Virus record (IMG/VR): IMGVR_UViG_3300037467_000469
Location: 1-38,821 of that record
DNA length: 38,821 bases
Reading direction: 5' to 3' (one strand)
DNA from: a virus
Taxonomy: Duplodnaviria; Caudoviricetes
The position numbers and the translations under genes are program-made. Of this stretch, positions 11,037 through 36,864 are shown one piece after another. Positions within the stretch are counted from its first letter, which is position 1, and every line of letters starts with the position of its first letter. The notes beneath the pieces were generated by a model. It was not told the origin of the DNA. It made no database searches and worked only from the letters and a program-made list of their open reading frames with translations.

Positions 11037-12485
11037 CTACTTGTTCAGAGCGTCGTGCATGGCGCCCGGATCGAAGCCCGGCACCCAGCCGATGTTCTTG
11101 ATGACGACAAAGCGCTTGGCGTTGTAAACGACAGGCATGCCGTACATCAGGATCATGAAGCGTTCCGCCGTAGAAATGCGGGCCAGCGGGAGCTTCATGA
11201 GCGGCGCCAACTGCATGAACCGGACAGCCTGCTCACCGTCGAAGTCGCCTACAAGGCAACGAGACGTGCCGGGAATGTCGAAGTTCTTGTCCACGATGGT
11301 GGTCGTGGCGCCCGCAGTGGCCTTGACGTCGAAGGCGTGCTGAACCTTGTTGCTACCCGGCGCAGTGGAGCGGTAGACCTTGTAGTACCGCACGCCAGCC
11401 GGGTTGTTGACGGTAATGGTGACGGCCTGTCCAGCCGCGACAGCGACAGTGCCCGTGACCGGGACCGACCAGCCCTTCGCGTTGACGGCGACGATGCTGT
11501 AGGTCTGGGTGCCTGCATCGGTGGCGGCGAACTTGGCGGTGGCGTCGGCACCAGCGGTAATGGCACCCGACAGAGTCGGCGCAGACGGGGCGTCCGGGTT
11601 GGAAGCGGCAGTCGGAGCGTTCTCACCCTTCTGGATGAACAGGTTGTTCTCGAAGGGGATCGTGCCGTGCGCCGACTCGTACTTGTTGACCGGGGCGCCC
11701 AGCGTGCCGTTGGCGGCACCCCATGGCGCACGCCGGAAGTTGGTGTTCGGGTCGGTGCCGTCGCCAATGATCAGGGTGGCGAGCGCGGCCTTGTCGTAGT
11801 TGTTCAGGTAGGCGACCTCAGGGACGCCATAGCCCTGCGTGGCGATCAGGTAGGCGGCGGCTTCGAAGACGCCCTCAGTGAGGAACTTACCGCGCATGTC
11901 GATGACGTGCGTCGGCTCGTCACGCTCGATCTGGGCGAACAGGCCGTCCCACTGAAGCGGATCAAGCTGGGAGTCGCCATAGAACAGGGACGACTCGATC
12001 TGCTTGAGCAACCACGTGGTGCCGTCCTGCGACTGCTTGGTGACCATGTCGCCAAGGACGTTCCGGACCAGCGTCGCGCCAAGGGTGATGCTCCGGGTGG
12101 TACCCAAGAACTTCACCAGCGCGGAGCGGCGCTCCCACTGGCTGTCTTCCTCGTTCGGCAGACCGCCGTCAATCATGAACGGCGAGGACTTGCCGCCGAA
12201 GGAGACCATCCGGTTGTACTCCTCGGTCGTGTTGTAAGCGGGCCGCTTGGCAATCCGCTTGTAGAGCTTGACGTGCTTCTCGGTAGCAAGCGACGTCTTC
12301 AGGGTGAGTTCCAGCGACTGCGGACGCAGGACGGACATGTCGCCCGTGTACTGACCATAGGCCTCACCGGACTGGCCCGTACCAAGGGCCTTGTTCAGCG
12401 CGTCAAGGCTCTCGACATGGTCCAGACCCCAGCCAGACAGGTTCAGGTGACCAAACTGCTCAACGCCAAGGACTTCCATGCTCAT
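11037..12485 (-). CDS. Major capsid protein (Twort/SPO1-like), with cleavable N-terminal propeptide
   Basis: LNKALGTG...LRPQSLE..L...KRPAYNT..EYN...IESSLFYGDS...VIDMRG...YYKVYRS resembles the phage K-type capsid, which is matured at VVK/SFQTG as I recall. Confidence 0.92.
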   Translation of the reverse strand: MSMEVLGVEQFGHLNLSGWGLDHVESLDALNKALGTGQSGEAYGQYTGDMSVLRPQSLELTLKTSLATEKHVKLYKRIAKRPAYNTTEEYNRMVSFGGKSSPFMIDGGLPNEEDSQWERRSALVKFLGTTRSITLGATLVRNVLGDMVTKQSQDGTTWLLKQIESSLFYGDSQLDPLQWDGLFAQIERDEPTHVIDMRGKFLTEGVFEAAAYLIATQGYGVPEVAYLNNYDKAALATLIIGDGTDPNTNFRRAPWGAANGTLGAPVNKYESAHGTIPFENNLFIQKGENAPTAASNPDAPSAPTLSGAITAGADATAKFAATDAGTQTYSIVAVNAKGWSVPVTGTVAVAAGQAVTITVNNPAGVRYYKVYRSTAPGSNKVQHAFDVKATAGATTTIVDKNFDIPGTSRCLVGDFDGEQAVRFMQLAPLMKLPLARISTAERFMILMYGMPVVYNAKRFVVIKNIGWVPGFDPGAMHDALNK

Positions 12486-12525: not shown

Positions 12526-13218
12526 TTAGAGGGAGATGCCGATGGCGGCGGCGACGGACGGGGTAAGTTCGCCCGTTACCTCGTAGCGGGTCACATCGCT
12601 GGCGCCAATGGCCCCGGTTTCAACCGCAGAAATCAGCTTAGCCTCAATCTGCGCCCGCGTCGGCCCACCACCCTGCTGGGCACCCTGACCGCTCAGGGAC
12701 TTCTGCAGGGAATGAAGCTGGCGCGTGTCGGTGACCGCCCGGCGCCCGACCGGGTTCTCTGCAAGGCTCTTGATCAGGTCGTGCATCTCCGTGATCTGAG
12801 TCTTCATGGCGGTGTTCTCCTCCATGACGCTCTTGACCGCCTTGCCGACCACGCCAAGGCTCTTAGCAAGCTGGACGTTGAAGATGTTCTGGGCCGACAG
12901 GGACTTGTCCAGCTTCGTCTCGAAGCCATCAACCGTGGCGCCAAGCTGGGTTACAAGGTTCTCAAGGAAGTCGGAGACCTCGAGAACGGTCTCGGTGTCT
13001 TCGTGCGACTTGACCAGATCGGTAACGAAGGACTTCTCGGTGTCTTCGTCTTCCTCACGGGACTCCTCACCGGACTCCTCACCGGACTCCTCACCGGACT
13101 CCTCGTCCTCGTCCGGCTCGTAGTCATCATCATTCGAGACGGATTCCTCCGAGCCGCCTTCAGCCGACTTCAGAAGCTCATCAAGCTCGATATCCAAGCT
13201 CTTAGAAAGATCTACCAT
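12526..13218 (-). CDS. Scaffold protein from internal in-frame start
   Basis: Perfect GGAGGTGA RBS before the in-frame ATG at 13218 (MVDLSKSLD...); acidic, coiled-coil, many x-x-K-S sites. Confidence 0.65.
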   Translation of the reverse strand: MVDLSKSLDIELDELLKSAEGGSEESVSNDDDYEPDEDEESGEESGEESGEESREEDEDTEKSFVTDLVKSHEDTETVLEVSDFLENLVTQLGATVDGFETKLDKSLSAQNIFNVQLAKSLGVVGKAVKSVMEENTAMKTQITEMHDLIKSLAENPVGRRAVTDTRQLHSLQKSLSGQGAQQGGGPTRAQIEAKLISAVETGAIGASDVTRYEVTGELTPSVAAAIGISL

Positions 13219-14064
13219 AGACAATTCACCTCCTGCCAGCTTTTCAGCTAGGCTTTTTAGCAAAACCGCCCGGCTGTAGCCGTAGCGGGCCGCTTCCTCG
13301 GCTACGTCCGGGGCATCTGCCAACAGATACAGGTCTGCGGCGATGCGCTCCGGAGTTAGGGCCTTGGTCAGCTTGCGATTCCGTGCGCGGTGCATGCCGC
13401 CCAGCCAGCGACCAACCACTTGCCGGACCCGCCGGGCAAAATCGTTGTACGCGGCGTTCGGATCCCCAGCGCCTTCGAGACTTTCCGGCATGATGGTAGC
13501 CATGCCGCCAGTGTCCAGTGAGAACTCCAGCGGGTCGGAACTAAAGTCCAACGACTTGGCGATGCGCGCCCATGCGCCCGTATCGACCGGGTTCATGGTC
13601 AGCACCACGTTGCGGATGATCGACTTGGTGACCCTGCCGGGGTCTTTGGGATCACGGGCGCGGGCGCCGCCTTCGATGGAGAAGCCCATCCGGCGACTTG
13701 AACCAGACTTCTCGAGCGTTTCCATCTGCTCAATGATCTGTTTGGTGTACTTGTGCTTGCCATAGAGCATGCCTTTGATGAAGAAGCCATCCGGGGTGAT
13801 CCGGGCCTCCAGCGGTTCCCCGATGAACTGATCCGGCTGAACCAGACCCTTCTTGTCGTGGTGCTCCCACTTGATGTGGCCCTTACTCAGGAAGTAGCTG
13901 TAGTCGATGCCCTCAGGGACCAACTGCTCGTTCTGCTCGTCCCGTTGGCCTGAGTTGGCAACGCCTTCCACGATGACGTTTCCGGTCTCCGGATCGACTG
14001 TGGACTTGGTGATTTCGACGCCCCAAACAAGGCGGTCTTCCGGGCGAATTTCAGCCTCGACCAT
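12526..14064 (-). CDS. Prohead protease fused to scaffold
   Basis: VEGVANS..RDEQNE, KWEH, GFSIEG and VVLT.NPV protease motifs; acidic coiled-coil C-terminal half; likely ATG 14064 after AGGGGGT. Confidence 0.88.
   Translation of the reverse strand: MVEAEIRPEDRLVWGVEITKSTVDPETGNVIVEGVANSGQRDEQNEQLVPEGIDYSYFLSKGHIKWEHHDKKGLVQPDQFIGEPLEARITPDGFFIKGMLYGKHKYTKQIIEQMETLEKSGSSRRMGFSIEGGARARDPKDPGRVTKSIIRNVVLTMNPVDTGAWARIAKSLDFSSDPLEFSLDTGGMATIMPESLEGAGDPNAAYNDFARRVRQVVGRWLGGMHRARNRKLTKALTPERIAADLYLLADAPDVAEEAARYGYSRAVLLKSLAEKLAGGELSMVDLSKSLDIELDELLKSAEGGSEESVSNDDDYEPDEDEESGEESGEESGEESREEDEDTEKSFVTDLVKSHEDTETVLEVSDFLENLVTQLGATVDGFETKLDKSLSAQNIFNVQLAKSLGVVGKAVKSVMEENTAMKTQITEMHDLIKSLAENPVGRRAVTDTRQLHSLQKSLSGQGAQQGGGPTRAQIEAKLISAVETGAIGASDVTRYEVTGELTPSVAAAIGISL
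13060..13104. repeat. 12 bp in-frame tandem repeat encoding EESG
   Basis: Unit ggactcctcacc, about 3.7 copies. Confidence 0.9.
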
Positions 14065-14091
14065 CCGACACACCCCCTAGAAAAACATAAA

Positions 14092-14190: not shown

Positions 14191-14220
14191 AAGATACCAT
14201 AGGTAGCGAACAGTTGACAA
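14191..14220 (-). promoter_or_regulatory. Putative sigmaA-like promoter for protease-capsid operon
   Basis: TTGTCA-N18-TATCTT with extended -10 TG on the minus strand. Confidence 0.4.
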
Positions 14221-15378: not shown

Positions 15379-15628
15379 CAGTTTTCACCCCCTTCAGGTA
15401 CGCTGTCGCCTCAGGCGGCGGGGTAATGTCGTGTTGGACCATAGCCGGGGCCAGCTTCTGCCAGATGGCGGCGATGGTCTCCTCACACTTCTGCGGGTCA
15501 TGGGTCATTTCCCGGCGAAAACCGGGGATGCCCTTCCGGAAGTAGTCCACCGTAGCGGCTACTTCCGGGGCGCCCTCACGCTCGATCCCGTTGTACATGG
15601 CGACAGTGAAGCGGGGTTCCTTAGCCAT
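15371..15628 (-). CDS. Hypothetical protein
   Basis: ATG 15628 after GGGAGGG, overlapping the end of the 2106 aa gene; 85 aa. Confidence 0.6.
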   Translation of the reverse strand: MAKEPRFTVAMYNGIEREGAPEVAATVDYFRKGIPGFRREMTHDPQKCEETIAAIWQKLAPAMVQHDITPPPEATAYLKGVKTGG

Positions 15629-18600
15629 GGCGGCGCCCTCCCAGTACGATGACGTGTCGTACAACCCGACTTTCTAGACCAAAGCTCTTCGCCACAGCCA
15701 GTTCCCGTTCCTGCGTGTTGGTGAAGCCGTGCTTCTCACGCAGACGTGCCGCTTGGGCTTCAAACTTCTCGGCCTGCCGGGTCAGGTTCTTCTGGTGGGC
15801 CTTCCATGCGGAACTGCTCAGCATCTCCGTATACTTCTCGGTAACCATCTTCCGCTTATCTGGATCCCAGACCTTGCGGGTGCGCTCTTGGTAGCGCTGG
15901 CCCGCGCTCTTCCGGGCATCCGCCGCCTGTCGCGTCAGGGTGTCGTGCTTGCGCCGTGCCGCCTCAACCGGGTCAACCTTGTCGGTTGCTTGCGCACCAA
16001 AGCGCTTATGCTCACCTGCAAGCGCCGCCTTGTAGCCGGGGCCTTGCGCCGCGTCCCCCACGAAGCCTTCCGCCGCCCGCGTGGCGTTCTCGACGGCTTG
16101 GATGTTGCCAACCTTGCGGTCATGGGCGTTCAGAATGTCGTTGTGGATGGTACCCGGCAGGAACGGCGACTCCACGGAGACCCTGTTATCAGCGCCCAGC
16201 GCCGCACGCTTACCCTTCGAGTCAGAACGCCGGGTACGTGCGACCTTTTGGGCTGTACGCTGGGGGTTCCACTCGTGGTCCAAGCTGATGAAGAGTTGGC
16301 CCGTGCCGAAGTCTTTACCTTCCTTGGCGGCGCTCGACATGATCATGACGTTCGGGCCATTCCGGTCATTGAAGGTAGCGGCGCCCTGATCACGCGTAAC
16401 GGCGTCATCCTCGCCTGTATAGGTGGCGTGCCGTAGCTCCGGGTAATCCCGCTTTAGCTCGTTGACCACGTTCTCGAGCACCTTGGTACCAAGCGCCACG
16501 TACTGGGACGACAGGACCACCTTGGGTGGGACCGGGGACTCGCCAGCCGCCCGGCGATTCTGGTTCAGTTCACGGTTGGCATCCAGATGCTTGCGGATCC
16601 GGTCGCCTACCCACTTCGCCATGGGGCTGTTCTGGTGAAGCGGGATGAACTTACCGTTGTCCATAACGCCATGGAAGCCTGTCTTGGGGTCCGTGTGCAG
16701 GGCGGCAACCGCCGCCGCTTCGGCCCCGGCGTCACCTTCGTCCCCAGCGTTCTTCAGCGCCCGTGCGTAGTCCGTGTGGCGGTGCAGGGCCTCCCACGCA
16801 TCCGGAGCGTTCATGAACTGCTGGAGCTTGTTGACGCCCGACAGGTAACCCGTTGCCGATGACCCAGACCCGTTGTCGTAACCTGTTGCGGCGTCACCAC
16901 GGAGCTTCGAAAGCTCATTGGCACCCAGCAGATCATTCTCGAGCTTGTAGTAGCGGTCGTAGAACTGCCGGGTATCCGGATCGACTTGGTTCAGATCTGG
17001 CGTGTACATGGTGTAGTCGGCGCCGGACTTCAATTGCGCCGTAGTAGGGTTGAAGTACGGGTGGACGGGTACCTTAGCCCCATGGTAGGGATTCGGCTCG
17101 CCCACAACGCCTTCGGGCCGGGTGATCTCGGGGAACTCGACGCCTACGTCTTCGCCCTTGCGGAACTGGACGTACTTCGCCAGCGTCTTGCCCAGATCTT
17201 CCATCTTGTCCGGATGGACTCGAATAACCTTGCCGCCCTTGCGCTCGAAGAAGTTGTTCAGGAACTCTTCCTTCGAACCCAGCCCGTGCTGGCCCATCGT
17301 ACCCATGTTGACAAGGTTCCAAAGCTCGGTCGGGTCGTTCTCCATTGGCGTGCCCGACAGACCCCAGACGTTCTGGACGCCCTTGGCGCCCGCCACATCC
17401 TGCAGGGCCGTACCGCGCGAGCCGTCCGGCTTCTTCAGGTTGTGGACCTCGTCCAGTACCATCGTATCGAAGTCGCCCCCGGTGAACAGGTGCGCGTTCT
17501 TGGCGAAGAAGTCCTGCGAGACAACCACCACGTCATGATCGACCTTCGACATGTCCAGTGGCGCCTTGTCGCTGTGGGGCAAGTAGGGCGCCCGCAGGTC
17601 TTCCGACCCGGTCACGGTGCCGAACATGCCGCCCCGGCCCCCGCTAGGACCGCCGACAACTGCCACCTTGACGTTGGTGTGTCGCTTGAACTCCTTCAGC
17701 CAATCCGACCGAATGCCGGACGGGGCCACGATTACCGACTTCTTCTGGGGCAGGCCTGCGGCCTCAGCCTCAGCCATCTTGTCCAAGATGCCCAAGACGC
17801 CTAGCTGGGTCTTACCCGTGCCCATTCCGTGTCCGGCAACGCCCCGCTTGCGGGTGCGCAGGAAGTGGACGCCCTGCAACTGCGTGTCGTAGAACTTCTG
17901 GGTGGTGAGCTTCGTGGAGTCTTCCTTCAGAAGTCGCTTCAGTGCCTCGGCCTTCTTGCCGCCAGCGGCGATGATGTCAGCAGGCTGGTACTTCGCGGCC
18001 CGCTCTTCCTTCGTCAGGAAGCCCTCGGGCCGGGACTGCTCCTCAAGGTACTTGTTGGTGACCTCATCCGCCTTGTCGGTCAGCGTGAAGCCCCCGAAGA
18101 CCTCGCGGAACTTCTCGAACTGGCTGAGCGACATCTTCGCCTGCCCGTTTTTGTCAACGGGGAGCTTCAAATCCTCAGCAAACGTCTGTCGGAAGGCCTC
18201 CGGCACATGGGCAACCAGATGGTCCTTACCCCAGTCCAGCAGGGGGAGTGACCCGGTCAGCGTGTCCCGTTGCCGTGCATGGGTGATTTGGGCGTTGTCC
18301 GGGCTGATGCGTAGGAGTTGGTCCCCAATGCGCACCCGATAGGCGCCCGTCTTCTCACCGTCATGTACGTACTCGTGGTCGATGACGCCTTCCTGCCACT
18401 TGGACTGACCCTTCAGCCGGAACTTGATCGCGTTGCCCTGTTCATGGGCAACCTTCTTCATCGCTGTGGTCTTAACAGATCCCTCAACCAACTTGCCGTT
18501 CTTAAACAGCGCCTTGGCCTTCTCTGCCGGATCCGTCAGATCGGCGGCGTCAGCGTAGATCTTGCCGTCCCATGGCCCGCCAACCACGGTCGGGGCGCCC

Positions 18601-21600
18601 AAACCGTTAAACTGAAGCTGGATGTGATGGTGGGCACCCTTACCCACAGCCCACTGTGACGGACTGACCGTCACCCACGCCTTGCGTCCGATGGACTGCG
18701 TAATGGCGAAGTCCAGATCAAACTGCGACTGGATGCCATTGGGCATCGAAGACGTGTTCAGCAACTGCCGCATGACCGGATCAGTCGGTTGCCCATCGGC
18801 CCCGATGTGGTACGTGGCGATCCGTCCGTCAGGCATGCGCTTCTTGAACGTAACCGACCCGTCATCTGCTACCTTGGGCACCAAGTCCTCAGCCCGGCTA
18901 AGCTCCTTCTTGACGGCCTTGCGCTGAATGTCAGCGGCGGCGTTGTCCGTCTTGGACAGCACACCGTTCCATTCATCTTCCGTCAGGACCGCCAACTTAT
19001 GGGTGTTCTTATCGGCATAGTCGTTTCCATAGGCCCACTTCTCGAGCAGTTCAGGGAGCATCAAGCCCTTCTTGCCGCCTGTGGTGCCATGGACCTTGTC
19101 GTAGGCTTCCTGCCCACCCTTGGTGCCATAAAGCATGCCCAGCAAGGTGCCGTAGCTTGATTCGTGCTTGGAAACGCCCTTGCCTTCGGCGTCGTCGATG
19201 GACCACACATCGCCCAACTGAGACGTCAGGCCTTCGCCGCCCTTGGCACCCTTGTCAGCGGCCTTGCCCAGTTTGATCTCAAAGGCAACACGTTTCCCAT
19301 CCGGCCCCGTCGCCATGTAGTGACCGGGGGGCAGGTATCGACGCCCTTCCTTGATCTGCTTGAAGTCATCCGTAGAACGGAACTGGTCCCGATGCTCCAT
19401 GAAACGACGCCGAAGTTCGTTCACATCATCGGTGACATGCGCCGTCTTAGCTCCACGGGCCGCTTCCGCATCCTGTTGGGCGATCTCCTCACCAACATCT
19501 TCCGTCTTCTCATGGAAGTTGTGTTCGGCCCGGACCTCGCCTTCGTCGTCGAACTCCTGATGCTTGCCCGACTCCGGGTTGTACCCGGAGTCGGCATCAC
19601 CAGAGTCATAGAGGATAGAAGGGTTGTCCCCGCCCTGAATCAGGATGTGGTGACCGCCCCATGTGATCCACGCAGAACCGGGGTTGTCCTGCAGGAGTTG
19701 CTCCGACCAAGTCAGGGCGCCCGTCTTCCCTTGAAGACGCCCCTGTTGGTCTTTCACATGGGACTCAAATCGTTCCCGGCCTGCACCCCGGACCCAGTCA
19801 CGCACTTTCTGATTGCGCCGGGTTCGGTCTACAGCAGACAGGTGTCCGTGGGTACCCATGGACTTTTCAAGGAAGTCAGCCATGGCGATGGCCTTCTCGA
19901 GCAGGGAGTCAGCGGGCAGGATCGGCTCAGCCAGCGTCAGCAGGATGCCTTCGCCCGGCACCTTGACCATGGTCATGACGTACTCGGTCGGGGGCAAATG
20001 ATCCGCCAGACCATCCAGCGACTTAACCAGCACCTGTCGGGTCGGCGCCCAGTCGCAGACGTCCCGGTCCAGCCCGTAGGCGCCCAGCGCTTCATCCAGA
20101 TCGGCCTCAAAGAGTGCCTTCAGGAGGGTGTTGCCCAACCCAAAGCCCTTCATAACCAGTTCCTTGATGTGCGACACGGCGTCTGGGTTCTTCTGGACAT
20201 GGGCCTGTAGCTTCTTCAGCGCCCGGCTGTACCGCTGACGGGCGTTGTCATGGCTGAGGCCCAAAGCCTGCGCCACGGCGGGGAAGTCCACCAGTTCAGC
20301 CGCCCGCATGCCGGATCCAAGCCCGTGGCGGGCCTGCACAACAGCAAGCTCGTCCTTGGACAGTCCGGCGTCATTCAGGATGGCGTTCAGACCAGCCCGC
20401 TGGGCCTTCCGGACCTCGCCCGCCATGGCCTGCCGCTCGGTGTCATTCTCGCCAGCTACTTGTTCATGCTTGGCAATGGCCTTGTCAGGGCTGTCGGCAT
20501 CCGAGACGTTCCGGTCCAAGCTGGTGGTCTTGTTCAGGTGGTACAGCGACTCCATGGCGGCAACCTTGTCGCCTGTAGCCGTCAGATACTCGCCCCGCTT
20601 GCCCGGCTTCAGGAGCTTGACGTCCGCCCATTCCGGCTTGTTCTTATCCAACCATGCCCCAATGCTCTTCCGATCCGCCGTACCGCCAGCCGCCGCAACT
20701 GCCTTAACGGCCTGATGGTACATGGCGAGCGGCCCGCGAAGCTCACGGGGGAGCTTGATCTGGTCGAACATGCCGTTGCCGTAACGGGACATCCGCTGTT
20801 GGGCGCGGGCGATGGCATAGTTGGAGGGATCCCGCAGGGCCTGCAGGCGCTCCAAATTGCCGTTCTCCTTGTTCTCGTTCCACTCGCGCACGCCTTCAAG
20901 CAGGCCCGTACGGAACTCCTGCGCCAGATCCGAGAAGTAGCCCGTGTCGATGCCGCTGATCTTCTCGTAGGTCTGGACGTGATCCAGACCCTTGGACTGC
21001 ATGAACTTCTTCGCCATGTGGCGGGTCATGCCTTCCATGCGATTGATGAAGTCTTCTTCCGTGACATGCTTCAGCTTCTCGAACTGGACGGGACCGTCCG
21101 GATACGCCCGTACCAGCCGGGGCACCTGTCGCCCAGAAGCGGTCTTCACCATCTCGATCTTCGGGAGCTTGAAGTCGCCTGAGTGGGTGCGGCCCTCGTT
21201 CGGCATCTCCCCGAACATCTCGGCAACCTTGTCCTGCAGACTGGCGAAGTCCTCGCCCGTGGCCTCCTTCAGGTTGGCAACCTGCCCAGAGGCTTCCTGC
21301 TGAATGGTGTCCGGGGTGTTGGTGCCTTCCTTGTACTTGGCGCCCGTACCGATGACCTTGCCCTCAGCCTTGGTCCGGACCAGCTTGTTCTCACCCGTCT
21401 TCTGGTCACGGGTCCATGCTGTGGTCTCAATCGCGGGGGATTCCTCGATGCGCTTCTTCTCTGCGGCCTTCCGGGCGCGCGCGGCCTGCTTGTCAGCCGC
21501 CGCCTTGGCCTCAGCGGCGCCCTTCTTATCCTTCTGGAGCTTCTGGGCAGTAGCCTTACCCGGCTTCAGGGCCTCGGTCGTCTTCTTGGCAGACGTCTTA

Positions 21601-21941
21601 ACAGCCTTGCTTGCGTTGACGTTCTTGGCGGCGACAGCCTGCTTGATCTCCTGCCGCTCAGCCATACCGACCGGAAGCGTTTCGCGGGCAACGGAACCAT
21701 CGGCCTTGATGTAGATGTGGTGCCCGCGCATGGTGCGCCAACTGCCACCGGGGTACTTCTTCTCGATCGCAGATGCGTTGTGACCACCCTTAGCCGCTGG
21801 AGCGGCCTTGGCCTTCGTGGCGGTTGTCTTAGTCTTGGCCTTCGACGTAGATTTGGCGGGTGCGGCCTTAGCCGTCCCCGCCGTCTTCTTCGCCGCCGCC
21901 TTGGCGCCCATCGCCTTCAGTAGGTCATCAGCGAAACCCAT
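15621..21941 (-). CDS. 2106 aa multidomain protein: sigma70-like domain plus SNF2-family ATPase, probably virion-packaged polyprotein
   Basis: Sigma regions 2-4 at ~21063-20200; SNF2 motifs GHGMGTGKT, LDEVH, LSGTP and WNP....Q..AR..R; two W-x-T-x-x-G-x-H modules; clustered x-x-K-[S/A/G] sites between domains. Confidence 0.8.
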   Translation of the reverse strand: MGFADDLLKAMGAKAAAKKTAGTAKAAPAKSTSKAKTKTTATKAKAAPAAKGGHNASAIEKKYPGGSWRTMRGHHIYIKADGSVARETLPVGMAERQEIKQAVAAKNVNASKAVKTSAKKTTEALKPGKATAQKLQKDKKGAAEAKAAADKQAARARKAAEKKRIEESPAIETTAWTRDQKTGENKLVRTKAEGKVIGTGAKYKEGTNTPDTIQQEASGQVANLKEATGEDFASLQDKVAEMFGEMPNEGRTHSGDFKLPKIEMVKTASGRQVPRLVRAYPDGPVQFEKLKHVTEEDFINRMEGMTRHMAKKFMQSKGLDHVQTYEKISGIDTGYFSDLAQEFRTGLLEGVREWNENKENGNLERLQALRDPSNYAIARAQQRMSRYGNGMFDQIKLPRELRGPLAMYHQAVKAVAAAGGTADRKSIGAWLDKNKPEWADVKLLKPGKRGEYLTATGDKVAAMESLYHLNKTTSLDRNVSDADSPDKAIAKHEQVAGENDTERQAMAGEVRKAQRAGLNAILNDAGLSKDELAVVQARHGLGSGMRAAELVDFPAVAQALGLSHDNARQRYSRALKKLQAHVQKNPDAVSHIKELVMKGFGLGNTLLKALFEADLDEALGAYGLDRDVCDWAPTRQVLVKSLDGLADHLPPTEYVMTMVKVPGEGILLTLAEPILPADSLLEKAIAMADFLEKSMGTHGHLSAVDRTRRNQKVRDWVRGAGRERFESHVKDQQGRLQGKTGALTWSEQLLQDNPGSAWITWGGHHILIQGGDNPSILYDSGDADSGYNPESGKHQEFDDEGEVRAEHNFHEKTEDVGEEIAQQDAEAARGAKTAHVTDDVNELRRRFMEHRDQFRSTDDFKQIKEGRRYLPPGHYMATGPDGKRVAFEIKLGKAADKGAKGGEGLTSQLGDVWSIDDAEGKGVSKHESSYGTLLGMLYGTKGGQEAYDKVHGTTGGKKGLMLPELLEKWAYGNDYADKNTHKLAVLTEDEWNGVLSKTDNAAADIQRKAVKKELSRAEDLVPKVADDGSVTFKKRMPDGRIATYHIGADGQPTDPVMRQLLNTSSMPNGIQSQFDLDFAITQSIGRKAWVTVSPSQWAVGKGAHHHIQLQFNGLGAPTVVGGPWDGKIYADAADLTDPAEKAKALFKNGKLVEGSVKTTAMKKVAHEQGNAIKFRLKGQSKWQEGVIDHEYVHDGEKTGAYRVRIGDQLLRISPDNAQITHARQRDTLTGSLPLLDWGKDHLVAHVPEAFRQTFAEDLKLPVDKNGQAKMSLSQFEKFREVFGGFTLTDKADEVTNKYLEEQSRPEGFLTKEERAAKYQPADIIAAGGKKAEALKRLLKEDSTKLTTQKFYDTQLQGVHFLRTRKRGVAGHGMGTGKTQLGVLGILDKMAEAEAAGLPQKKSVIVAPSGIRSDWLKEFKRHTNVKVAVVGGPSGGRGGMFGTVTGSEDLRAPYLPHSDKAPLDMSKVDHDVVVVSQDFFAKNAHLFTGGDFDTMVLDEVHNLKKPDGSRGTALQDVAGAKGVQNVWGLSGTPMENDPTELWNLVNMGTMGQHGLGSKEEFLNNFFERKGGKVIRVHPDKMEDLGKTLAKYVQFRKGEDVGVEFPEITRPEGVVGEPNPYHGAKVPVHPYFNPTTAQLKSGADYTMYTPDLNQVDPDTRQFYDRYYKLENDLLGANELSKLRGDAATGYDNGSGSSATGYLSGVNKLQQFMNAPDAWEALHRHTDYARALKNAGDEGDAGAEAAAVAALHTDPKTGFHGVMDNGKFIPLHQNSPMAKWVGDRIRKHLDANRELNQNRRAAGESPVPPKVVLSSQYVALGTKVLENVVNELKRDYPELRHATYTGEDDAVTRDQGAATFNDRNGPNVMIMSSAAKEGKDFGTGQLFISLDHEWNPQRTAQKVARTRRSDSKGKRAALGADNRVSVESPFLPGTIHNDILNAHDRKVGNIQAVENATRAAEGFVGDAAQGPGYKAALAGEHKRFGAQATDKVDPVEAARRKHDTLTRQAADARKSAGQRYQERTRKVWDPDKRKMVTEKYTEMLSSSAWKAHQKNLTRQAEKFEAQAARLREKHGFTNTQERELAVAKSFGLESRVVRHVIVLGGRRHG

Positions 21942-21953: not shown

Positions 21954-23198
21954 CTACTCTTTCAGATCCTTTGGATAAATGATGTGGAGGGATTTTTGGA
22001 CCCCGTTCTCACCCGTGCCGGGGTTGTAGTACCGCTGGACACGGGCGCCAGCGGCCTCATGGATCGGGCCGATGAGCAACCCATGGGGAAGTGCCCGTTC
22101 AGCCTCGTAAATGGTTTGGGCGGTCAGGGCGCCCTGCTGGGGTTGGACCTTCGCCTGCTTGCGTTGCTCGTAGCCGCTGGGTGCCATGGCGTGGGCCTTC
22201 TCCAAAGAAGTGCCCTTAACAACCTGCTTGGTCAGGCCTTGGAAAGCCTTCTGGGGCTGGGTTACGGTGCCCTTGGCGTCGGCCTCCAGCGCCTGCAGGA
22301 ACTTGTCCTGCGCCGCCTTGTCGAAGACAAAGGCCGTCCCGCCGATATTCTTGGCGCCCACCTTGGTGAAGTACTGGGCGGTTTCCGTCAGGGCGTTAAC
22401 CGTCACCCGCTGGCCTGCGGCCTTCTCGAAGACTGCCGCCAGCAAACGAGATCCGGCCCCGGCCTGCGCCGCCTCGGCACCCCGATGGCTGGGTGCCGTC
22501 TCCAAGTACTGCACCGTGTAGCCGCCGTTTGCCTCACCACAGGCCGCGAAGCCTGCCCATTCAGCACCCGACTTCAACCCGATGACGGTTGTGCCGCCCT
22601 CGTCGTCCCCGCCGCCTTGGTCCTGCCCATCTACCAGATCCACCAAGGCCTTACCGAAGTGGACCGGGTAGTCCCCGGACTCCTCCCACTGCTCGACAGC
22701 CCCAAAGATGTCGTCACCGCTGGGATTCTCGTACAGGCCGAAACCCTTCACCCGGTCGTAGGTGGCAAGTCGGCCCTTCGGCTGGGTCTTGCTGGAAGCT
22801 ACAGCAGGCCCAGCCTTCTGGCCTCCGCTTCCTGCGCCCTTGTCCGGGCGAAGATCGTCTGATTTCGCTCCCGCATCCATGTCACTTCGGGACTGGGCGC
22901 CGGGGCGCCCGTCCGCCTGCGCCGTTTTCGGGGCCACGGGCTTCTCTTCCTCCGGATCATGGCGCCCACCCCCCGCCGATTTCAGCAGGTCCACGGTAGC
23001 TAGTGCCTTGATGACCGTGGGGGACCGCAGGTCCATGACGTGGGCCGGGATGTCTTCCCCTGCCGCCTGCAGATCCTGAATGAGCCGGGTGACCACATGA
23101 TCAAGGGCGCCCTGCTCTTCCAGACCCTTGGTGACGGACGGCGAGCGAAGGTAATTAACCCGCTCCCGCAAATCCGCCTTACTGGTGCCTACAGCCAT
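21954..23198 (-). CDS. Protein with GNAT-family acetyltransferase domain
   Basis: YTVQYLETAP..R.......GAGSRLL..VFEKA....VTVNAL.ETAQYF.KVG matches GNAT motifs A/B; flanked by VIKA, LLKS, VVKG, LEKA and VQKS sites. Confidence 0.65.
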   Translation of the reverse strand: MAVGTSKADLRERVNYLRSPSVTKGLEEQGALDHVVTRLIQDLQAAGEDIPAHVMDLRSPTVIKALATVDLLKSAGGGRHDPEEEKPVAPKTAQADGRPGAQSRSDMDAGAKSDDLRPDKGAGSGGQKAGPAVASSKTQPKGRLATYDRVKGFGLYENPSGDDIFGAVEQWEESGDYPVHFGKALVDLVDGQDQGGGDDEGGTTVIGLKSGAEWAGFAACGEANGGYTVQYLETAPSHRGAEAAQAGAGSRLLAAVFEKAAGQRVTVNALTETAQYFTKVGAKNIGGTAFVFDKAAQDKFLQALEADAKGTVTQPQKAFQGLTKQVVKGTSLEKAHAMAPSGYEQRKQAKVQPQQGALTAQTIYEAERALPHGLLIGPIHEAAGARVQRYYNPGTGENGVQKSLHIIYPKDLKE

Positions 23199-23201: not shown

Positions 23202-26200
23202 CTACTTCGCCCCCTTGGTGGTTCTGGTGGAAGATTTCTTCGTAGCTGAAGGGGTTTCCTTCTGTTCCACGGCGATGGCGGCATTTTGAGCGCTCACCAT
23301 GTTCTTGGCAGTACCTGTGTACTTCTTCTGCGTGGGTCCATGGAAGGTGCTCCAGTCCCATTCACCTGTGCTCTTGTTGTAAGAAACACTGTGCTGGTGG
23401 TCCCCGGTAGCGCTACCCGCATGGTAGTGCTCCATCCCCTTCGACTTGCGCCACGTCCGGTCCCCAACGCGCTCAACCTTGGCAGGCTTACCCTTAACCT
23501 GTTTGGCCTCTTCGGCAAGCTCATACCCGGTCTTGGTAGACTGGGTAGTCGTCTTCTTGTCGGCGTCACGGATGATCGGCTTCTTGCTCATCGCCACATC
23601 AAAGCCGCTCCCGCTTCCCTTGCCATAGAGCTTTTCCATCGCCGCCATGTTGTCGGCCTTGATCTTGGCGTTGCGCTCCCGGTTCAGTTGGGCGCCCGTC
23701 TTAGGCTTCGCCGGGGTCGGCTCAGGCGCCGGGGTCTTCTTGGCCCTGCTGGCCTTCACCGGGGCCTCAGCCGCCGCCTTTGCCGCCGCCTTGGCCTCAT
23801 CAGCCGCCGCCTTTGCCGCCGCCTTGGCGTTCTTCGCCGCCGCACGCTCTTCAGCGGCGCCCTTGGCCTTGGTGTACTGTTCACGGGCCTTGGCAACCGT
23901 TCCGGCGTCGGCGCCCAGCATCTCGAGCACGTCAGCCACGGTCAGCTTCGACCCCACCTTGCCTGCATCGACCCCACCGTCTGACCCAAACACGTCCGAA
24001 ATGATTTTGCCCTTGCGCTCCAGCACGCTCATCTTGCGCTGGTCGATGGAGTTTGCCATTTCAAACTGCTGGTGGTGGAAGTTGTTCTCCTGCCCCTGCC
24101 GATAGCCACGGCCCAGCCGCTGTTCCATCGCCGCAGGGGTCCACTCGTAGTCCAGATCAATGTGCATGTTGGAGTTGGCCTGCAGGTTCATGCCTTCCGT
24201 ACCTGCCTTGGTCATCAAGATGACCTTGCCCTTGCCTGCGTTGAAGTCGATCTCGGCCTGATCACGGGCTTTCTTCGACGTGTTGCCCTGCACGTAGAGG
24301 AAGTCCTTGTCCTTGAAGCCGTGTTCAGCCTTCAACTGCTCCTTCAGGAACTCCAGCGTTCGGGGCGACTGTCCAAAGACGATGGTACCCTTGCCGCCGT
24401 TGTAGTTGTTCTCCTCGTTGGTGCGCTCCCAGTTCGTGGCGATCTGGTCAGCGGCCTCGGCAATCTTGGGCGACGCATAGCCCTTGGTCCGGATCTGCTT
24501 CAGGACCGGGTTTGTGGCCTTGATGCCCATGCCTTCAAGCGCTTCCGGGGTGTCGATCAGTCGGGGGTCGATGGCGATCTGCTCCAGCCGCATTAGCTGG
24601 GTCAGCATGTGCATGTCCACGCTGGCGGCGCCGTCCATCCCTTCAAGCTCCTGAAGCATTGACCCGCGCAGGGCGCCGTAGAGCTTGTTCTGTGCATCAT
24701 CCATGTCCAGAACCGCTGTATCATGCGTCTTGGGCGGCATGGCGATCTTCACGCGGGGATCCTGCTTCTCCAGCATGAAGAAGTAGGGGGCGATCATCTT
24801 GCGCAGGTTCGCACGCTCGTTCGCCTTGACGCCGCAGACCACCTTGGTCTCCCCATCGCCCTTCAGGTTCGGGATGGTCTCGTACTGGGCAAACTTCTGC
24901 ACGAAGCGCTTCTTCTCACCCAGCACGCCGGGGTTCATGAACTCCATGGCCCGGTAGGTCTCTTCCAACTTGTTCATCATGGGGGTTGCGGTCAGCCACC
25001 ACGTGTACTTGGGTGACATGTGCTCGTACGCGGCCTTGGACCGGGCCGACTTGGGATCCTTGAGGTAATGCGCCTCGTCGAAGATGGCGATGTCGTTCTG
25101 CAGTTCCTTCTTGATCTGGGCACCCTCGTTGGTCATGATGGCGTAGCTCATGACCACATAATCAGCCTTCTTGGCCTCCTTGTAGAGCGCCTTGCGCTCT
25201 TCAGGCCCGCCGTCGATCTTCACGACCTTCTTGCCGTTGAAGAACTTGTGGACCTCACGCTCCCAACCGCCCAGTCGGGACGCCGGGACCACGATGACGG
25301 CTGGCCCCTTCGCCTTGCCTTCCTGCTTCAGCTTTTCAGCCGCCAGCAGGCTGGTCAGGGTCTTGCCAAGGCCCGTACCGAAGCCCAGCACGCCCTTCTC
25401 GATGGTGTTCAGGTAGTGGACGCCTGACCACTGGTAACCGTGGGGCTTGATGCCCGCCTTCAGGGTCTTGATCTTGACCGGATCCTCCACCTGTTGAGCG
25501 GCTTCGCCTGCCTTGGCCCGGTCACCCTGTGACTTCAGCTTCTCAGCCAGTGCCGGGTTGTGCTCAGCCATGTTCTTCAGAACACCCTCGGAGATGTTCA
25601 TCATGGGGCCGAACTGCGCGTGCAATTCCTCGATCTGCTTGTGAACCTTGGCAAAGTCGCCCTTGAAGATCCAGATGCCGTTGTGGAAGGCCGTGTCCAT
25701 CTTCTTCACGGCGTTCTTGAAGCTCCGGTGGACCTTGTCGTTGTTGTCGTAGCCCGTCAGCTTCAGACCGATGTAGCCCTTGCCGCCCACGCCAAAGATC
25801 TTCACATCGATCTTCAGGCCTGCGGCCTTCTCAGCCGCCAGACGGGCCTGCATCTCCTCGTAGGTCTCGTAGCCCTTCGCCGCAGGCGGGGGCTGGGTGG
25901 TACCTCCTTGCTGGGCCGGGGCCGGGGCGCCCGGCGCCTCCCCCTTGTACGGGGGCGCCTTGGCGTCATGCCGGAATGAGCCATGGATGCCATTCTCCAG
26001 CATGTACTGCAGGGTCTTGGCGGCGTGCCCGCTGTCCAGCTTGACAGGGATGTGCCAGCCTGTGGCGGCGCCATCCTCCTTCCAGACGGCGCCCAGTTCC
26101 TTCAGGCGGTCCTTGTGCTCGAACGTGTTGTTCTTCTGCCCACTGGCGAGCGCCTTCGGCACGACGAACCAGCCACGGGCGCCATTGCCGAACTGCTTCT

Positions 26201-28805: not shown

Positions 28806-28818
28806 TGGGTTCCCCTCC

Positions 28819-29187: not shown

Positions 29188-29205
29188 AGCGTTCAGCCTC
29201 CTTGG

Positions 29206-29670: not shown

Positions 29671-29687
29671 GTTGGGCGCCCCCTTCC

Positions 29688-33101: not shown

Positions 33102-33119
33102 AGTCCTGCGCCCCCTTCG

Positions 33120-33449: not shown

Positions 33450-33628
33450 TAGGGCTTCACCTCCCGAAGGTGCGGTGTCCACATGTTGTTGGTAATCCAG
33501 TTGTGGACGGTTTCAACAGGGATTAGCTGGAACGTGATGCCCTTCTGCTGGGCAATCAGCCGGGCGCCCTTGCGCTGGGGCGCCATGGTGATGTCCTTAA
33601 CGTTGGGTTGGATCCGCAGGCCCTTCAT
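33449..33628 (-). CDS. 59 aa hypothetical protein
   Basis: ATGA overlap with the MuF stop and TAATG overlap with the next gene. Confidence 0.5.
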   Translation of the reverse strand: MKGLRIQPNVKDITMAPQRKGARLIAQQKGITFQLIPVETVHNWITNNMWTPHLREVKP

Positions 33629-35163
33629 TCGCCCACCCCCATGGCCTCTTGGGCGATGGCGCCCGTGTCGTCGTTCTCGCCTGCCTCGTCCACAGCCTGC
33701 GATACCCGCAGGGGCGCCACGATGACGGGTACCCAGAATCCGCCAGCCTCCATGGCGACATACCACAGGTGGTGCCCGTCCAAGATCGTCCCGTGGGCGT
33801 CGATCAGAATGGGCTTGTAGATGCCTTCCCGGCTGAAGCGCTCCCGCACCTTGGCGAGCTTTTCCGGGTTCAGCATGGGTACTTGGTTGGGGTTGGCGCC
33901 CAGCGTGTGCGGATCCCGCCATTCGTACTGGCTCAGATCGGCAAGACGGTCGAAGTCCGGGGCGCCGTGTCCCTTGATCAGCACATCCGGACCATCGAAG
34001 ATGCTCTTCAACGTTGCCCGCAGGGCCTGCCGCTCGGTCAGGATCTCTTCCGGGGTCTTCAGGTCGATCCGGCCTTCCGGGGTCACCTTCATGAACTTGG
34101 GATCGAAGACCTGCCAGCGGCATCGGCAGTTCGGGTGACCGGGGATGCAGGGCACCCAGTCTTTCTTCCGGCGCCCATAGTTGGTCTTGCCCACCCAAAC
34201 TTCACGCCACGGGTCACCCGGTTCCTTGACCACCTTGAAGATCTTGCCATGGATGTGCGCCTTACACCACTCGCAGGCGGTGCCGTCCGCCTGCCCGATG
34301 ACGAATGTCCCGACAGGCAGGGTGGCAAGGTAGCCGTTTGCCATACACTCTGCCAGTTCGGTGATGGCGATGCGTCGCCAGTCACGGTTGAACTCACCCA
34401 GCTTATCCAGCAAGGCCTTCTGAAGTTCACCGGGTGTCCAGCGGCCTCGCCGGGCCTGAATGACCAGTTCGCGGGTTGTGGATATGATGTACTGATTCTG
34501 CGTGGCAATCTTTTCCCCTGCATGAAGTTGCGCCCACCTGATGGCTTCTTCCTCAAGAGTTGTCAGCGGCAAAACAGGCTGGTCCGGGGCGCCCTTGTCG
34601 GCCCGCAGGCGGTACTCCTTGCCCGGATGGGGGGCTGGGAGGTTCTTGCGGGCGTTCAGGGTCACGGGCAGATCGGGCAGGAAGATGGCGGGGAGCTTCC
34701 GGCCCGCACGGTCGAAGGCCTGCATCAGGGCCGAAAGCGCCTCTGCCTTGATGACGTAGCGGTCAGCAAGGGTGGCGTTCTTCGCCAGCCCCTTGCGCAG
34801 TAGGCGTTCGATCTCGGTTAGCTGTTCGTTGGACCAAGACTTGCCGTCGCGCAGGTAGCGGATGACTGACTTGGGCAGGTAGCGCATGCGGTCCACATCT
34901 TGGGCGCCCTTCTGCAGATCCATGGTAATGCTTTTGGCGACGGATGCCCCAGCGGGCACGTAGGCCCCGGTTGCGTCGAAAGCGACGGGGCCTTCCGGGG
35001 CGCCCAGCCCCAACTGGTCAATCAGGTGCAGGATGACCACGGCTGTTGGTTCGGTCAGTTCGGTGTAGAAGGCATCCTCCAGATCGGCCCATGTACTGTG
35101 CTGGTCGTTGCGAGACCAGATACCCCCTAGGGTATCAGTTTCGATAGGGAATGGGTAGGCCAT
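33625..35163 (-). CDS. MuF-like minor head protein with C-terminal ParB/Srx-like domain
   Basis: RRIAITE, ACEWC, PGHPNCRCRW (MuF); NPNQ....K.....I.KPILID....ILDGHH......G...VPVIV (ParB N-terminal like); ATG 35163 after GGAGGG. Confidence 0.8.
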   Translation of the reverse strand: MAYPFPIETDTLGGIWSRNDQHSTWADLEDAFYTELTEPTAVVILHLIDQLGLGAPEGPVAFDATGAYVPAGASVAKSITMDLQKGAQDVDRMRYLPKSVIRYLRDGKSWSNEQLTEIERLLRKGLAKNATLADRYVIKAEALSALMQAFDRAGRKLPAIFLPDLPVTLNARKNLPAPHPGKEYRLRADKGAPDQPVLPLTTLEEEAIRWAQLHAGEKIATQNQYIISTTRELVIQARRGRWTPGELQKALLDKLGEFNRDWRRIAITELAECMANGYLATLPVGTFVIGQADGTACEWCKAHIHGKIFKVVKEPGDPWREVWVGKTNYGRRKKDWVPCIPGHPNCRCRWQVFDPKFMKVTPEGRIDLKTPEEILTERQALRATLKSIFDGPDVLIKGHGAPDFDRLADLSQYEWRDPHTLGANPNQVPMLNPEKLAKVRERFSREGIYKPILIDAHGTILDGHHLWYVAMEAGGFWVPVIVAPLRVSQAVDEAGENDDTGAIAQEAMGVGE

Positions 35164-35445
35164 GGCGTGTCGCCCTCCTTGTTGCACAAAAAGCCCTGAA
35201 AGGCTACGGACTCATAGGTTTTCTCATGTGACATTTTCAATTTAGGCCCCCCACCCCAAAAAATAAAATAAAAAAACCGGGCGGGGATTTCTATTTTATT
35301 TTTTCGCGGGTTGGAACACGGCTCGGTGTAATGCGTCAAAGTGATCAGTTGATAGACTTTGAAGGGTTTTTGTGCGGAGCGCTCACCCGGTTGGGTAGTA
35401 CGGCTCGGGCGCCCGCCCGGAACCATACCCCCTAGGGGTATCTGG
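35116..35445. repeat. Nested inverted repeats sharing one centre (~35280-35281)
   Basis: CCAGATACCCC 35116/35445; GCACAAAAA(G)CCCT 35184/35375; AAAAAATAAAATA 35258/35304. Confidence 0.75.
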
Positions 35446-36770: not shown

Positions 36771-36794
36771 CGCTATTTCAGCCCCTTACATGAC

Positions 36795-36822: not shown

Positions 36823-36864
36823 GTTGTCGGTAAGTTTCGACCTTAAATGGTTGAATCCTGCTGA

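Follow-up and report, generated by a model that had tools for sequence, protein, structure and literature searches.

Phage-type polyvalent proteins are large, multidomain proteins encoded near MuF and other virion genes, carry SWI2/SNF2 ATPases and LPD domains, and have been proposed to be injected into the host (Iyer et al. 2017, PMC5512222), a source that also describes DarA and DarB as head components. Phages that transcribe without new protein synthesis have been described with whole RNA polymerases or modifying enzymes (PMC5512222, PMC13282480), such as the packaged and injected virion RNA polymerases of N4 and phiKZ and the T4 Alt protein, which start or redirect early transcription. Phage sigma factors of the SPO1 gp28/gp34 type are stand-alone middle, late or auxiliary proteins made after infection (PMC9429907, PMC3601020), and the words "virion" and "packaged" are absent from the main text of PMC9429907. 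Our searches of the literature outside most subscription journals found no packaged or fused phage sigma, and no precedent for a SNF2 ATPase fused to one.

The DNA analysed here, referred to as the window, is the whole 38,821-nt stretch of IMG/VR record IMGVR_UViG_3300037467_000469 (Caudoviricetes). It represents an uncultured, SPO1-like phage family whose hosts are likely spore-forming Bacillota, as indicated by SpoVS, encoded in one relative, and by a sporulation-type sigma in three. Within its head region, a 2106-aa polyprotein combines a sigma70-like part with a SNF2 ATPase. The best reading of the sequence, to which we assign a probability of about one half, is that this sigma is packaged, released by a protease and injected, and that it starts early transcription.

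A sigma70-family factor in a head-region polyprotein

The first-pass annotation had proposed a complete sigma70-like factor inside a giant head-region protein. All seven peptides that it quoted were found in the translation of the ORF, in the order given, and aa 288-590 are, on profile and fold comparison, a divergent member of the sigma70 family in which domains 2, 3 and 4 are all present (Table 1). Searches with the single sequence gave Sigma70_r4 as the sole sigma match in Pfam, at 17.7 bits against a cut-off of 24.1, with no match to Sigma70_r2 or Sigma70_r3, and TIGR02937 at 27.5 bits, below the NCBIfam cut-off of 42.9. With phmmer against PDB sequences no sigma was obtained, only chance matches to Bcl-xL; the sigma domain had no tblastn match among 50,697 records of cultured phages, word-index searches gave nothing beyond one 89% relative, and metagenome scans gave no confirmed locus. 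PHROG 351 (sigma factor) matched aa 288-588 with an E value of 2.2e-7. The Pfam comparison that had been suggested for regions 2, 3 and 4 thus failed for the single sequence, while family profiles matched SigA/RpoD clearly: a 6-sequence profile reached RpoD at E 1.2e-13, and a 16-sequence profile reached SigA of B. subtilis at E 1.3e-17, the match falling into two segments, 2.2-3.1 and 3.2-4.2, with E 3e-8 for the domain 2 segment and 8e-5 for the domain 4 helix-turn-helix. The searches were of limited sensitivity, as TIGR02937 missed even the fused sigma of relative G003, and the A2 profile gave no match to the sigma of L012, L013 and L022, which the alignment nevertheless reveals. One further candidate homologue, P0008 (E 1e-4), was dropped as an HA-repeat protein.

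With Foldseek against the PDB, 49 of 49 among the matches listed, the best at E 2e-4, were sigma chains or models that contain a sigma, at a TM of about 0.2 owing to different placement of the domains in the model. The best VIA-align match to the whole model was T. aquaticus SigA (Z 10.6, 232 residues aligned, rmsd 25.8), and domain 2 alone matched 1sig (Z 7.6, rmsd 2.7 over 72 residues), both Z values being middling for helical folds; domain 4 matched CnrH with Z 9.3 and rmsd 2.0 over 67 aligned residues.

Table 1. Features of the polyprotein gene and of its surroundings in the window (a slash marks a predicted cut).
Feature	Position	Strand	Basis or remark
Sigma-SNF2 polyprotein ORF, 2106 aa	15621..21941	(-)	ORF translation
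Predicted N-terminal head-protease site LLK/A, aa 7-10	21912..21923	(-)	motif; cleavage predicted
Basic Lys/Ala-rich leader of predicted sigma product, aa 10-287, pI 10.1	21081..21914	(-)	
Hairpin header peptide 1, W-x-T-x-x-G-H-H type	21702..21761	(-)	also in 1095-aa and 743-aa neighbours
Sigma70-family factor, domains 2, 3, 4, aa 288-590	20172..21080	(-)	profile, fold, PHROG matches
Sigma region 2.1	20994-21056	(-)	peptide located in translation
Sigma region 2.2	20880..20936	(-)	D338, Q341 = RpoD D403, Q406
Sigma region 2.3	20799..20828	(-)	A378-R379 in place of W433-W434
Family-specific insertion of ~25 aa between regions 3.1 and 3.2	20568..20645	(-)	short strands in model
Sigma region 3.2	20457-20534	(-)	peptide located in translation
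Sigma region 4.1	20313-20366	(-)	peptide located in translation
Sigma region 4.2 helix-turn-helix	20202..20285	(-)	recognition helix unlike RpoD's
Acidic spacer, pI 4.2	19860..20156	(-)	five predicted protease sites K598, K608, K640, K683, K693
Hairpin header peptide 2, start of predicted ATPase product	19623..19700	(-)	
Conserved middle region, aa 694-1320	17982..19862	(-)	
SWI2/SNF2 ATPase	16047..17984	(-)	Pfam SNF2, PHROG 62
Predicted C-terminal protease site VAK/S, aa 2083-2086	15684..15695	(-)	motif
Three upstream predicted cargo genes: 414 aa; 1095 aa (second SNF2); 743 aa	21954..28883	(-)	
MuF-like head morphogenesis protein, ParB-like C-terminus	33625..35187	(-)	PHROG 4728 E 1.6e-5
Host sigmaA-type promoter-like site upstream of protease	14191..14220	(-)	similar sites in six relatives
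Prohead protease-scaffold fusion	12526..14073	(-)	14 motif copies
SPO1-like major capsid protein, LNK/A at aa 30-33	11037..12485	(-)	34% to SPO1 gp6.1

Key residues and sigma group

Across the 16 family members, the equivalents of RpoD D403 and Q406 are invariant and that of E407 is present in the window clade only (2/16); we take these positions of region 2.2 to be core-binding residues. The P453 position is likewise invariant (16/16), whereas K414, K418, F427 and the -35 contacts R584, E585 and R588 are not conserved. The recognition helix of region 4.2 is the most variable segment compared, with a mean identity of 0.30 versus 0.44-0.57 in regions 2.2-3.0. The Trp dyad W433-W434, which the first-pass annotation had found missing in the window protein, is absent family-wide and is replaced by x-Arg in 16/16 members with Arg always at the W434 position. 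The same Arg occurs in E. coli FliA (R74) and is conserved in group 3, including functional sigma28 (PMC12784957), so neither a decoy role nor dependence on an ATPase follows from the loss of the dyad, contrary to what had been argued; an ATPase is nonetheless fused to the sigma and may help it.

Regarding the group, regions 3.0-3.2 align to RpoD and SigA, which separates the protein from ECF (group 4) factors, in which domain 3 is absent, and the dyad that marks groups 1 and 2 (RpoD, SigA, RpoS) is missing. Domains 2, 3 and 4 together with the Arg at the W434 position are the marks of group 3 (FliA/SigD/WhiG), while the closest profile matches are not group 3 sigmas, the 16-sequence profile preferring SigA/RpoD (1e-17) over FliA (4e-7). 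With respect to regions 1.1 and 1.2, profile matches begin at region 2.2, and the leader is basic and of low complexity. The factor is predicted to function in the manner of group 3 (sigma28-type) sigmas, with weak melting and strict promoter recognition.

These residues bear on the idea of an injected decoy that ties up core polymerase and stops transcription of the host's genes, with the phage's private promoters (below) being read in some other way. The invariant core-binding positions, the loss of several RpoD DNA-contact residues and a degenerate region 4.1 in the L010 clade would suit such a role; the invariant, DNA-facing Arg shared with sigma28 and the purifying selection that keeps domains 3 and 4 (dN/dS 0.10 and 0.13, against the orthologue described below; domain 2, 0.06) would not, and we regard a decoy as improbable.

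Architecture, cut motifs and gene neighbourhood

The C-terminal SNF2 ATPase (aa 1320-1965), absent from the first-pass annotation, was recognized by Pfam SNF2 (E 7.8e-18; 65 bits versus a cut-off of 24.9), Helicase_C (24.2 bits versus 23.5) and PHROG 62 (E 1.9e-40), and comprises both RecA-like lobes with an intact Walker A (nt 17796-17834), DEVH and motif VI. No adenine methylase family matched the 2106-aa protein in Pfam or PHROG, 630 aa being without assignment. The middle region had no Pfam match, no usable Atlas match and no look-alike. A complete 111-kb phage bears an 86% identical orthologue, with an overall dN/dS of 0.11, of 0.05-0.08 in the middle region and of 0.19-0.29 in the leader, and the order sigma, spacer, SNF2 is repeated in 14 full-length homologues with identity down to about 25%.

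Lys-Ser/Ala/Gly motifs flank the sigma and avoid the sigma itself; the earlier observation of putative maturation motifs right after sigma4 in a head-region gene was correct. The pattern was picked after the sequences had been seen, and counts were made in 14 homologues, omitting G006 and the truncated P0004 and L028: 72 motifs fall in 1489 aa of spacer versus 6 in 4471 aa of sigma, with 0 in 3006 aa of leader and 29 in 19721 aa of the rest. A motif lies within the first 20 aa in 14/14 full-length homologues. In the window, head-region proteins totalling 5875 aa contain 43 motifs, and 14 other proteins totalling 4887 aa contain 3. Cleavage in SPO1-like heads takes place after Lys; no paper confirming this was found in our literature searches. 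The fusion gene is situated directly upstream of the protease gene in 14 of 15 new loci, the remaining contig ending there, and downstream of MuF in 10 of 15, which are all those that extend so far. In 8/8 relatives scanned, LPD1, a domain of polyvalent proteins, occurs in its upstream neighbour; LPD1 was not detected in the neighbour proteins of the window.

From this arrangement, the polyprotein is likely packed into the prohead, where cutting by the phage head protease likely yields a sigma product of 64 kDa and an ATPase product of 153 kDa. The sigma-like part could instead be a non-transcriptional DNA-binding or targeting module for SNF2 in a protein that stays whole, given that the fusion is kept in 14/14 full-length homologues and that polyvalent proteins commonly carry SNF2 ATPases (PMC5512222). 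Since 4-6 cut motifs part sigma from ATPase in every homologue and the core-binding positions are invariant, such a module appears very improbable.

Promoter-like motifs in complete relatives

A private, bipartite promoter-like motif occurs 5-14 times in each of six complete relatives (G001, 14; G002, 7; G003, 5; G004, 7; G005, 13; G006, 6), on the sense strand, in a fixed register and 30-75 nt ahead of a start; two weak G005 sites, scoring 1.2 and 28, were dropped. Its upstream box of 8 bp is separated by a 10-bp spacer from a downstream box of 9 bp that ends in TGTA(C/T). Sigma28 promoters have two boxes with a short spacer, a layout that the private motif resembles. The G001 sites scored 43-72 bits versus a null maximum of 6.3, and 44 of 46 sites lie outside the terminase-to-tail block, which makes up 42-49% of each genome. 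No private promoter was found in the window itself, so that the promoter evidence comes from relatives, the nearest being 86% identical. A motif scan of IMG/VR returned 19 stretches, of which the single new complete genome, found via the motif alone, encodes the fusion (E 1e-107); the L064 stretch was left out of the follow-up, and another, G008, lay on an unrelated provirus and was treated as chance.

The downstream box is common to the relatives and the upstream box is clade-specific. G003 and G006 agree in their upstream box and in having an Asn-Arg pair within the recognition helix, in a set of six genomes that is too small to demonstrate covariation. Among the 26 families common to five genomes, no other sigma and no polymerase were found, which also speaks against the decoy. 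Of two sigma-sized core genes considered as alternative readers, one encodes a terminase-small-subunit-like HTH protein and the other has no Pfam match. A stand-alone second sigma, of sporulation type, occurs in G004-G006 only and was ruled out as a general reader because G001-G003 lack it. Another divergent factor could escape sigma searches, as the fused sigma of G003 did with TIGR02937. The reader of the private promoters might be an alternative sigma of the host or a phage factor that escaped detection, the packaged sigma targeting host genes, e.g., those for stress or sporulation; spore-forming hosts, phage sigmas that can alter host sporulation (PMC9429907) and the limited search sensitivity would fit. 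We hold this to be of low probability, as an upstream box that varies by phage beside a constant downstream box is easier to reconcile with a reader encoded by the phage than with a conserved host sigma, and as the fused sigma matches SigA/RpoD best and is not sporulation-like.

Host-type promoters precede the replication genes, which means that the sigma is not strictly needed for starting infection, and an extended -10 site lies directly ahead of the sigma-SNF2 gene in 5/5 of G002-G006, from which host polymerase could make the polyprotein after infection. Both kinds of site would suit a sigma that served the private promoters in the producing cell, cut or uncut, in the way in which SPO1 gp28 and gp34 act (PMC9429907), with packaging, if any, merely removing or storing it. 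This course seems unlikely to us: in the window and G001 the fusion gene lacks a separate promoter and lies at most 13 nt behind other cargo genes; a host-type promoter also precedes the protease gene, so that promoters of this kind are not bound to be early ones; and it would leave unexplained why cut motifs bracket the sigma, why header peptides are present and why the gene keeps its place between MuF and protease.

Proposed mechanism and significance

The conserved layout, the positions of the cut sites and the private promoter class in complete relatives back the idea of an injected sigma. For its use in dormant or sporulating cells, as raised in the first-pass annotation, the pointers are indirect, namely the two genes in relatives that suggest spore-forming hosts. 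The sigma would likely enter with the DNA and, once bound to the host's core RNA polymerase, direct early transcription from the private promoters, domain 4 reading the upstream box and domains 2 and 3 the downstream box; transcription of replication and head genes from host sigmaA-type promoters would come next. For the ATPase we predict a double-strand translocase acting on incoming DNA or on polymerase, in RapA-like recycling, in clearing host proteins or in helping opening; this is the weakest step. Tentatively, we propose that these phages take a third way into early transcription, besides those by host sigmaA and by a virion RNA polymerase, in which the capsid would deliver a protease-matured sigma and its SNF2 partner, one to one from a single polyprotein, and the pair would turn core polymerase to private early promoters without phage gene expression. 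The usual order would then be inverted, with host-type promoters serving replication and head genes, and the sigma4 helix and upstream box, diverging together, would form natural orthogonal sigma-promoter pairs.

If this is true, a packaged sigma is a far smaller means of seizing transcription at entry, and the fused ATPase adds an energy-using partner to a phage sigma. A gene of about 2000 residues, so far annotated only as helicase or hypothetical protein, would gain an explanation. The case can be tested without phage culture, since putative promoters and cut sites are at hand, as are six natural candidate sigma-promoter pairs, and it could yield orthogonal transcription parts for Bacillota.

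Comparison with known systems

Like polyvalent proteins, the 2106-aa protein is large and multidomain, lies near MuF among virion genes and carries SNF2. In contrast, the word sigma occurs 0 times in the main text of PMC5512222, and the SNF2 ATPases described there pair with adenine methylases, none of which was detected here. With sigma28/FliA (PMC12784957) it shares domains 2, 3 and 4, the Arg at the W434 position and, in the window protein, the Pro-Arg of FliA P90-R91; it differs in its RpoD-like region 4.1, its SigA/RpoD-favouring scores, the domain 3 insertion and its place in a phage polyprotein. Like SPO1 gp28/gp34 and the sporulation-like phage sigmas, it is a phage sigma that would redirect host core polymerase, and the similarity of the capsid proteins (Table 1) is a further likeness to SPO1; unlike them, it is not a stand-alone protein and would be delivered rather than made after infection. 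RapA/HepA (PMC5512222, PMC7824862) is also a SWI2/SNF2 ATPase linked to RNA polymerase, is cellular and without a sigma fusion, and is likened here by ATPase class alone. With the N4 and phiKZ polymerases and T4 Alt (PMC5512222, PMC13282480), the proposed system would have packaging, injection and the start or redirection of early transcription in common; where those phages bring in a whole polymerase or a modifying enzyme, a specificity subunit and an ATPase would be delivered here.

Genome organization of the window

The window corresponded to a myovirus structural block in which every gene lies on the minus strand, in the order MuF-like gene, three predicted cargo genes, the 2106-aa ORF, protease-scaffold, major capsid protein (34% identity to SPO1 gp6.1), neck, sheath, and tail genes. 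The first-pass annotation had placed a sigma70-like factor inside this ORF, and all the peptides it quoted were found there in the order claimed; the C-terminal third encodes a SWI2/SNF2 ATPase with intact motifs. Three SNF2 ATPases occur in the clade of the window: the fused one, one in a predicted cargo protein, and one stand-alone, seen in the relative G001. The sigma-SNF2 proteins of the window and of locus L002 are 86% identical, and the cargo genes beside them keep their ends and have swapped internal modules.

Coordinates and promoter boxes in the window and in relatives (G, genomes; L, loci from searches)
Feature	Source	Position (nt)	Description
Sigma-SNF2 gene	window	15621-21941 (-)	2106 aa
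Tad2-like domain genes	window	36240-37829	three in tandem, upstream of MuF; Pfam E 2e-18, 3e-18, 6e-6
Tail-like or decoration genes	window	28819-33482	between MuF and cargo genes; Laminin G domain, NWP-repeat protein, also M78-like peptidase; G001 retains a 122-aa gene alone
SNF2 predicted cargo protein	window	23202-26489	1095 aa
Stand-alone SNF2	G001	42316-44433	behind private promoter
Cargo genes beside sigma-SNF2	window	21954-23198, 26652-28883	
Cargo genes beside sigma-SNF2	L002	7371-9167, 2383-4284	
Upstream cargo genes	L010, L023, L017	1595-9061, 1592-9067, 4793-9064	RadC-like JAB and LPD1 domains
Interrupted sigma-SNF2 gene	G006	65812-73687	
Upstream cargo ORF	G002	65583-73049	
Private promoter inside that ORF	G002	71450-71530	
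Host sigmaA-type site	window	14191-14220	upstream of protease
Second-class promoter sites	G001	10642, 24731, 37714, 49770, 53147, 56886, 58214, 60219	
SpoVS homologue	G001	22391-22702	
Private boxes (upstream / downstream)	G001		TGTCACAG / CCGGTGTAC, 14 sites
Private boxes	G002		GTCCACTT / CCTATGTAT, 7 sites
Private boxes	G003		TAGAATT / CCTGTGTAT, 5 sites
Private boxes	G004		TAAGAGTT / SCTGTGTAT, 7 sites
Private boxes	G005		GTAGAGAA / CGTATGTAT, 13 sites

Identity of the sigma region

As a single sequence, the sigma region was borderline, with 17.7 bits to Pfam Sigma70_r4 (cut-off 24.1), 27.5 bits to TIGR02937 (cut-off 42.9), and no match to Pfam r2 or r3. Amino acids 288-588 matched PHROG 351 (E 2.2e-7), and the ESM Atlas neighbours were sigma70 clusters. 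Homologues came from an exhaustive search (five relatives and one false hit), a profile search (two more), an IMG/VR scan (15 loci), and GTDB (one fragment). The resulting alignment comprised 16 sequences in three deep clades, several being close pairs and hence not independent samples; its profile retrieved B. subtilis SigA (E 1.3e-17) and FliA (E 4.4e-7), and Foldseek matched the models to sigma chains, which bears out the sigma70 identity. AlphaFold models (pLDDT 65.8 and 74.4) likewise retrieved sigma chains in VIA-align (best Z 10.6), with poor global fits owing to the flexible linkage between domains. The 14 full-length homologues (1782-2404 aa) are all arranged as leader, sigma, spacer, middle region, SNF2. 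A comparison with the 86% identical orthologue gave dN/dS values of 0.06, 0.10, and 0.13 for sigma domains 2, 3, and 4; the spacer value was 0.27.

Residues were mapped with E. coli RpoD and FliA as references. In RpoD numbering, D403, Q406, and P453 are invariant in the family, as is the Arg at the W434 position, which FliA also carries. K414, K418, and F427, together with the -35 contacts R584, E585, and R588, are not conserved, and region 4.1 is degenerate in one clade; both count against simple function. A non-transcriptional module is highly improbable. A decoy sigma, also improbable, had been argued from the missing Trp dyad. That argument falls, for the Arg is common to FliA and group 3: according to PMC12784957, sigma28 lacks both tryptophans, and the Arg at the W434 position is conserved in group 3 and touches the -12 base. 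Absence of the dyad thus points to a sigma28-like mode. The fused sigma fits neither the group 1/2 nor the ECF pattern and scores under curated cut-offs; judged by sequence, it would work in the group 3 manner and has a phage polyvalent protein-like build.

Signs of possible packaging

In 14 of 15 new loci the sigma-SNF2 gene sits immediately upstream of the prohead protease, and in all 10 that extend far enough it lies downstream of MuF; its upstream neighbour carries LPD1 in 8/8 relatives scanned. The motif hydrophobic-x-Lys-Ser/Ala/Gly, picked after the sequences had been viewed, has 43 copies in the head-region proteins of the window (5875 aa) versus 3 in 14 other proteins (4887 aa). The 43 include 14 in the protease-scaffold and one near the N-terminus of the capsid protein. 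SPO1-like head proteases cleave after such lysines, although our literature search found no paper for this. The 14 homologues each carry one copy within the first 20 residues; across all 14, the spacer has 72 copies in 1489 aa, the sigma part 6 in 4471 aa, and the leader none in 3006 aa. The predicted products, aa 10-598 (64 kDa, pI 9.8) and aa 694-2085 (153 kDa), each open with a hairpin header peptide that recurs in neighbouring genes.

Among the upstream cargo genes of L010, L023, and L017, one gave a weak zinc-peptidase-like match under the cut-off. In G006, about 800 nt, likely an intron or mobile insert, break the sigma-SNF2 gene within Walker A, and the ATPase resumes in another frame.

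Candidate private promoters in relatives

Upstream regions of five relatives with complete or near-complete genomes (G001-G005) were searched without bias for spaced words, which yielded a two-box motif in four; the fifth was reached via the shared core. The elements keep a constant register, in which an 8-bp box is followed by 10 bp, a 9-bp box, about 8 nt, TGAGGG or TAGRGG, a hairpin, and a ribosome-binding site. All 46 sites point at a start 30-75 nt downstream and 44 lie outside the terminase-to-tail block, most preceding small unknown genes; in G002, G005, G007, and G009, one site lies immediately ahead of a further SNF2 gene, a stand-alone one. Relatives share the downstream box but differ in the upstream box, in line with sigma identities of 0.44-0.57 in regions 2.2-3.0 versus 0.30 in the recognition helix of region 4.2 (computed over six genomes, with near-identical stand-ins for G003 and G004). 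An IMG/VR motif scan returned 19 stretches: 10 on the pattern-source genomes, 7 on four further same-family contigs, one unrelated, and one unchecked. G006, its sole new complete genome, encodes the fusion (E 1e-107) and has 6 sites. With the G001-type pattern, 24 stretches were returned from four contigs, of which two were already known to carry the gene. No private site was found in the window, as expected of a structural block, and the promoter evidence comes from relatives.

The private promoter inside the G002 cargo ORF is complete, with hairpin, ribosome-binding site, and in-frame ATG; the final 507 aa of the ORF could additionally be expressed early as a protein of their own.

Proposed mechanism, alternative readers, and host-type promoters

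We assign a probability of roughly 0.5 to the sigma-SNF2 protein being packaged, cut, and ejected to start early transcription at the private promoters. The polyprotein would be synthesized late, loaded into the prohead, and cleaved into sigma and ATPase products; the ejected sigma would drive the early transcription, and the ATPase would likely target DNA or polymerase. Beyond homology, layout, and motif statistics, we infer every step. A sigma aimed at the host, with another factor reading these promoters, seems unlikely. The 26 families common to G001-G005 revealed no other sigma or polymerase, at a limited sensitivity that missed the G003 fused sigma with TIGR02937, and a stand-alone sporulation-type sigma (412-465 aa with a C-terminal extension; L029, L030, L085) occurs in G004-G006 only.

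Host sigmaA-type sites precede the protease in the window and in relatives, and also replication genes. An extended -10 site directly upstream of the sigma-SNF2 gene in G002-G006 is the main support for a working sigma active in the cell that makes it; the window and G001 lack this site, and we consider such activity doubtful, though the least improbable of the alternatives to packaging and ejection.

In G001, 8 sites (null 0-2) form another promoter class, with a TTGTCCAA box located 9-11 nt upstream of a host-type -10. One of them lies ahead of a conserved HTH gene of 90 aa that encodes a candidate regulator; in G003-G005, host-type promoters are flanked by related boxes. Upstream of the protease, G002-G006 share a conserved leader of 100-150 nt, which contains GGGCAAC...AGGACAG..CCAAGAC and an extended inverted repeat and may form a structured RNA. 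The 9-bp palindrome CTTC(C/G)GAAG, found across G002-G007, G009, and G010, has 107-151 copies in G003-G006 and 29 in G002 versus 0-7 in resampled controls, and none in the window or G001; mostly intragenic but also in the protease promoter spacer, it may serve throughout the genome as a signal for protein binding or packaging.

The SpoVS homologue and strong ribosome-binding sites suggest that the hosts are likely spore-forming Bacillota; for the dormancy role proposed earlier, nothing was found linking it to the fused sigma.

Comparison with known systems

Sigma is absent from the main text on phage polyvalent proteins (PMC5512222), as are virions and packaging from the main text of the paper on phage sigmas (PMC9429907). 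Within the incomplete coverage of our literature search, no packaged or SNF2-fused sigma was found. Virion polymerases and stand-alone sigmas are described in PMC7824862 and PMC13282480. The sigma-SNF2 fusion is real and conserved.
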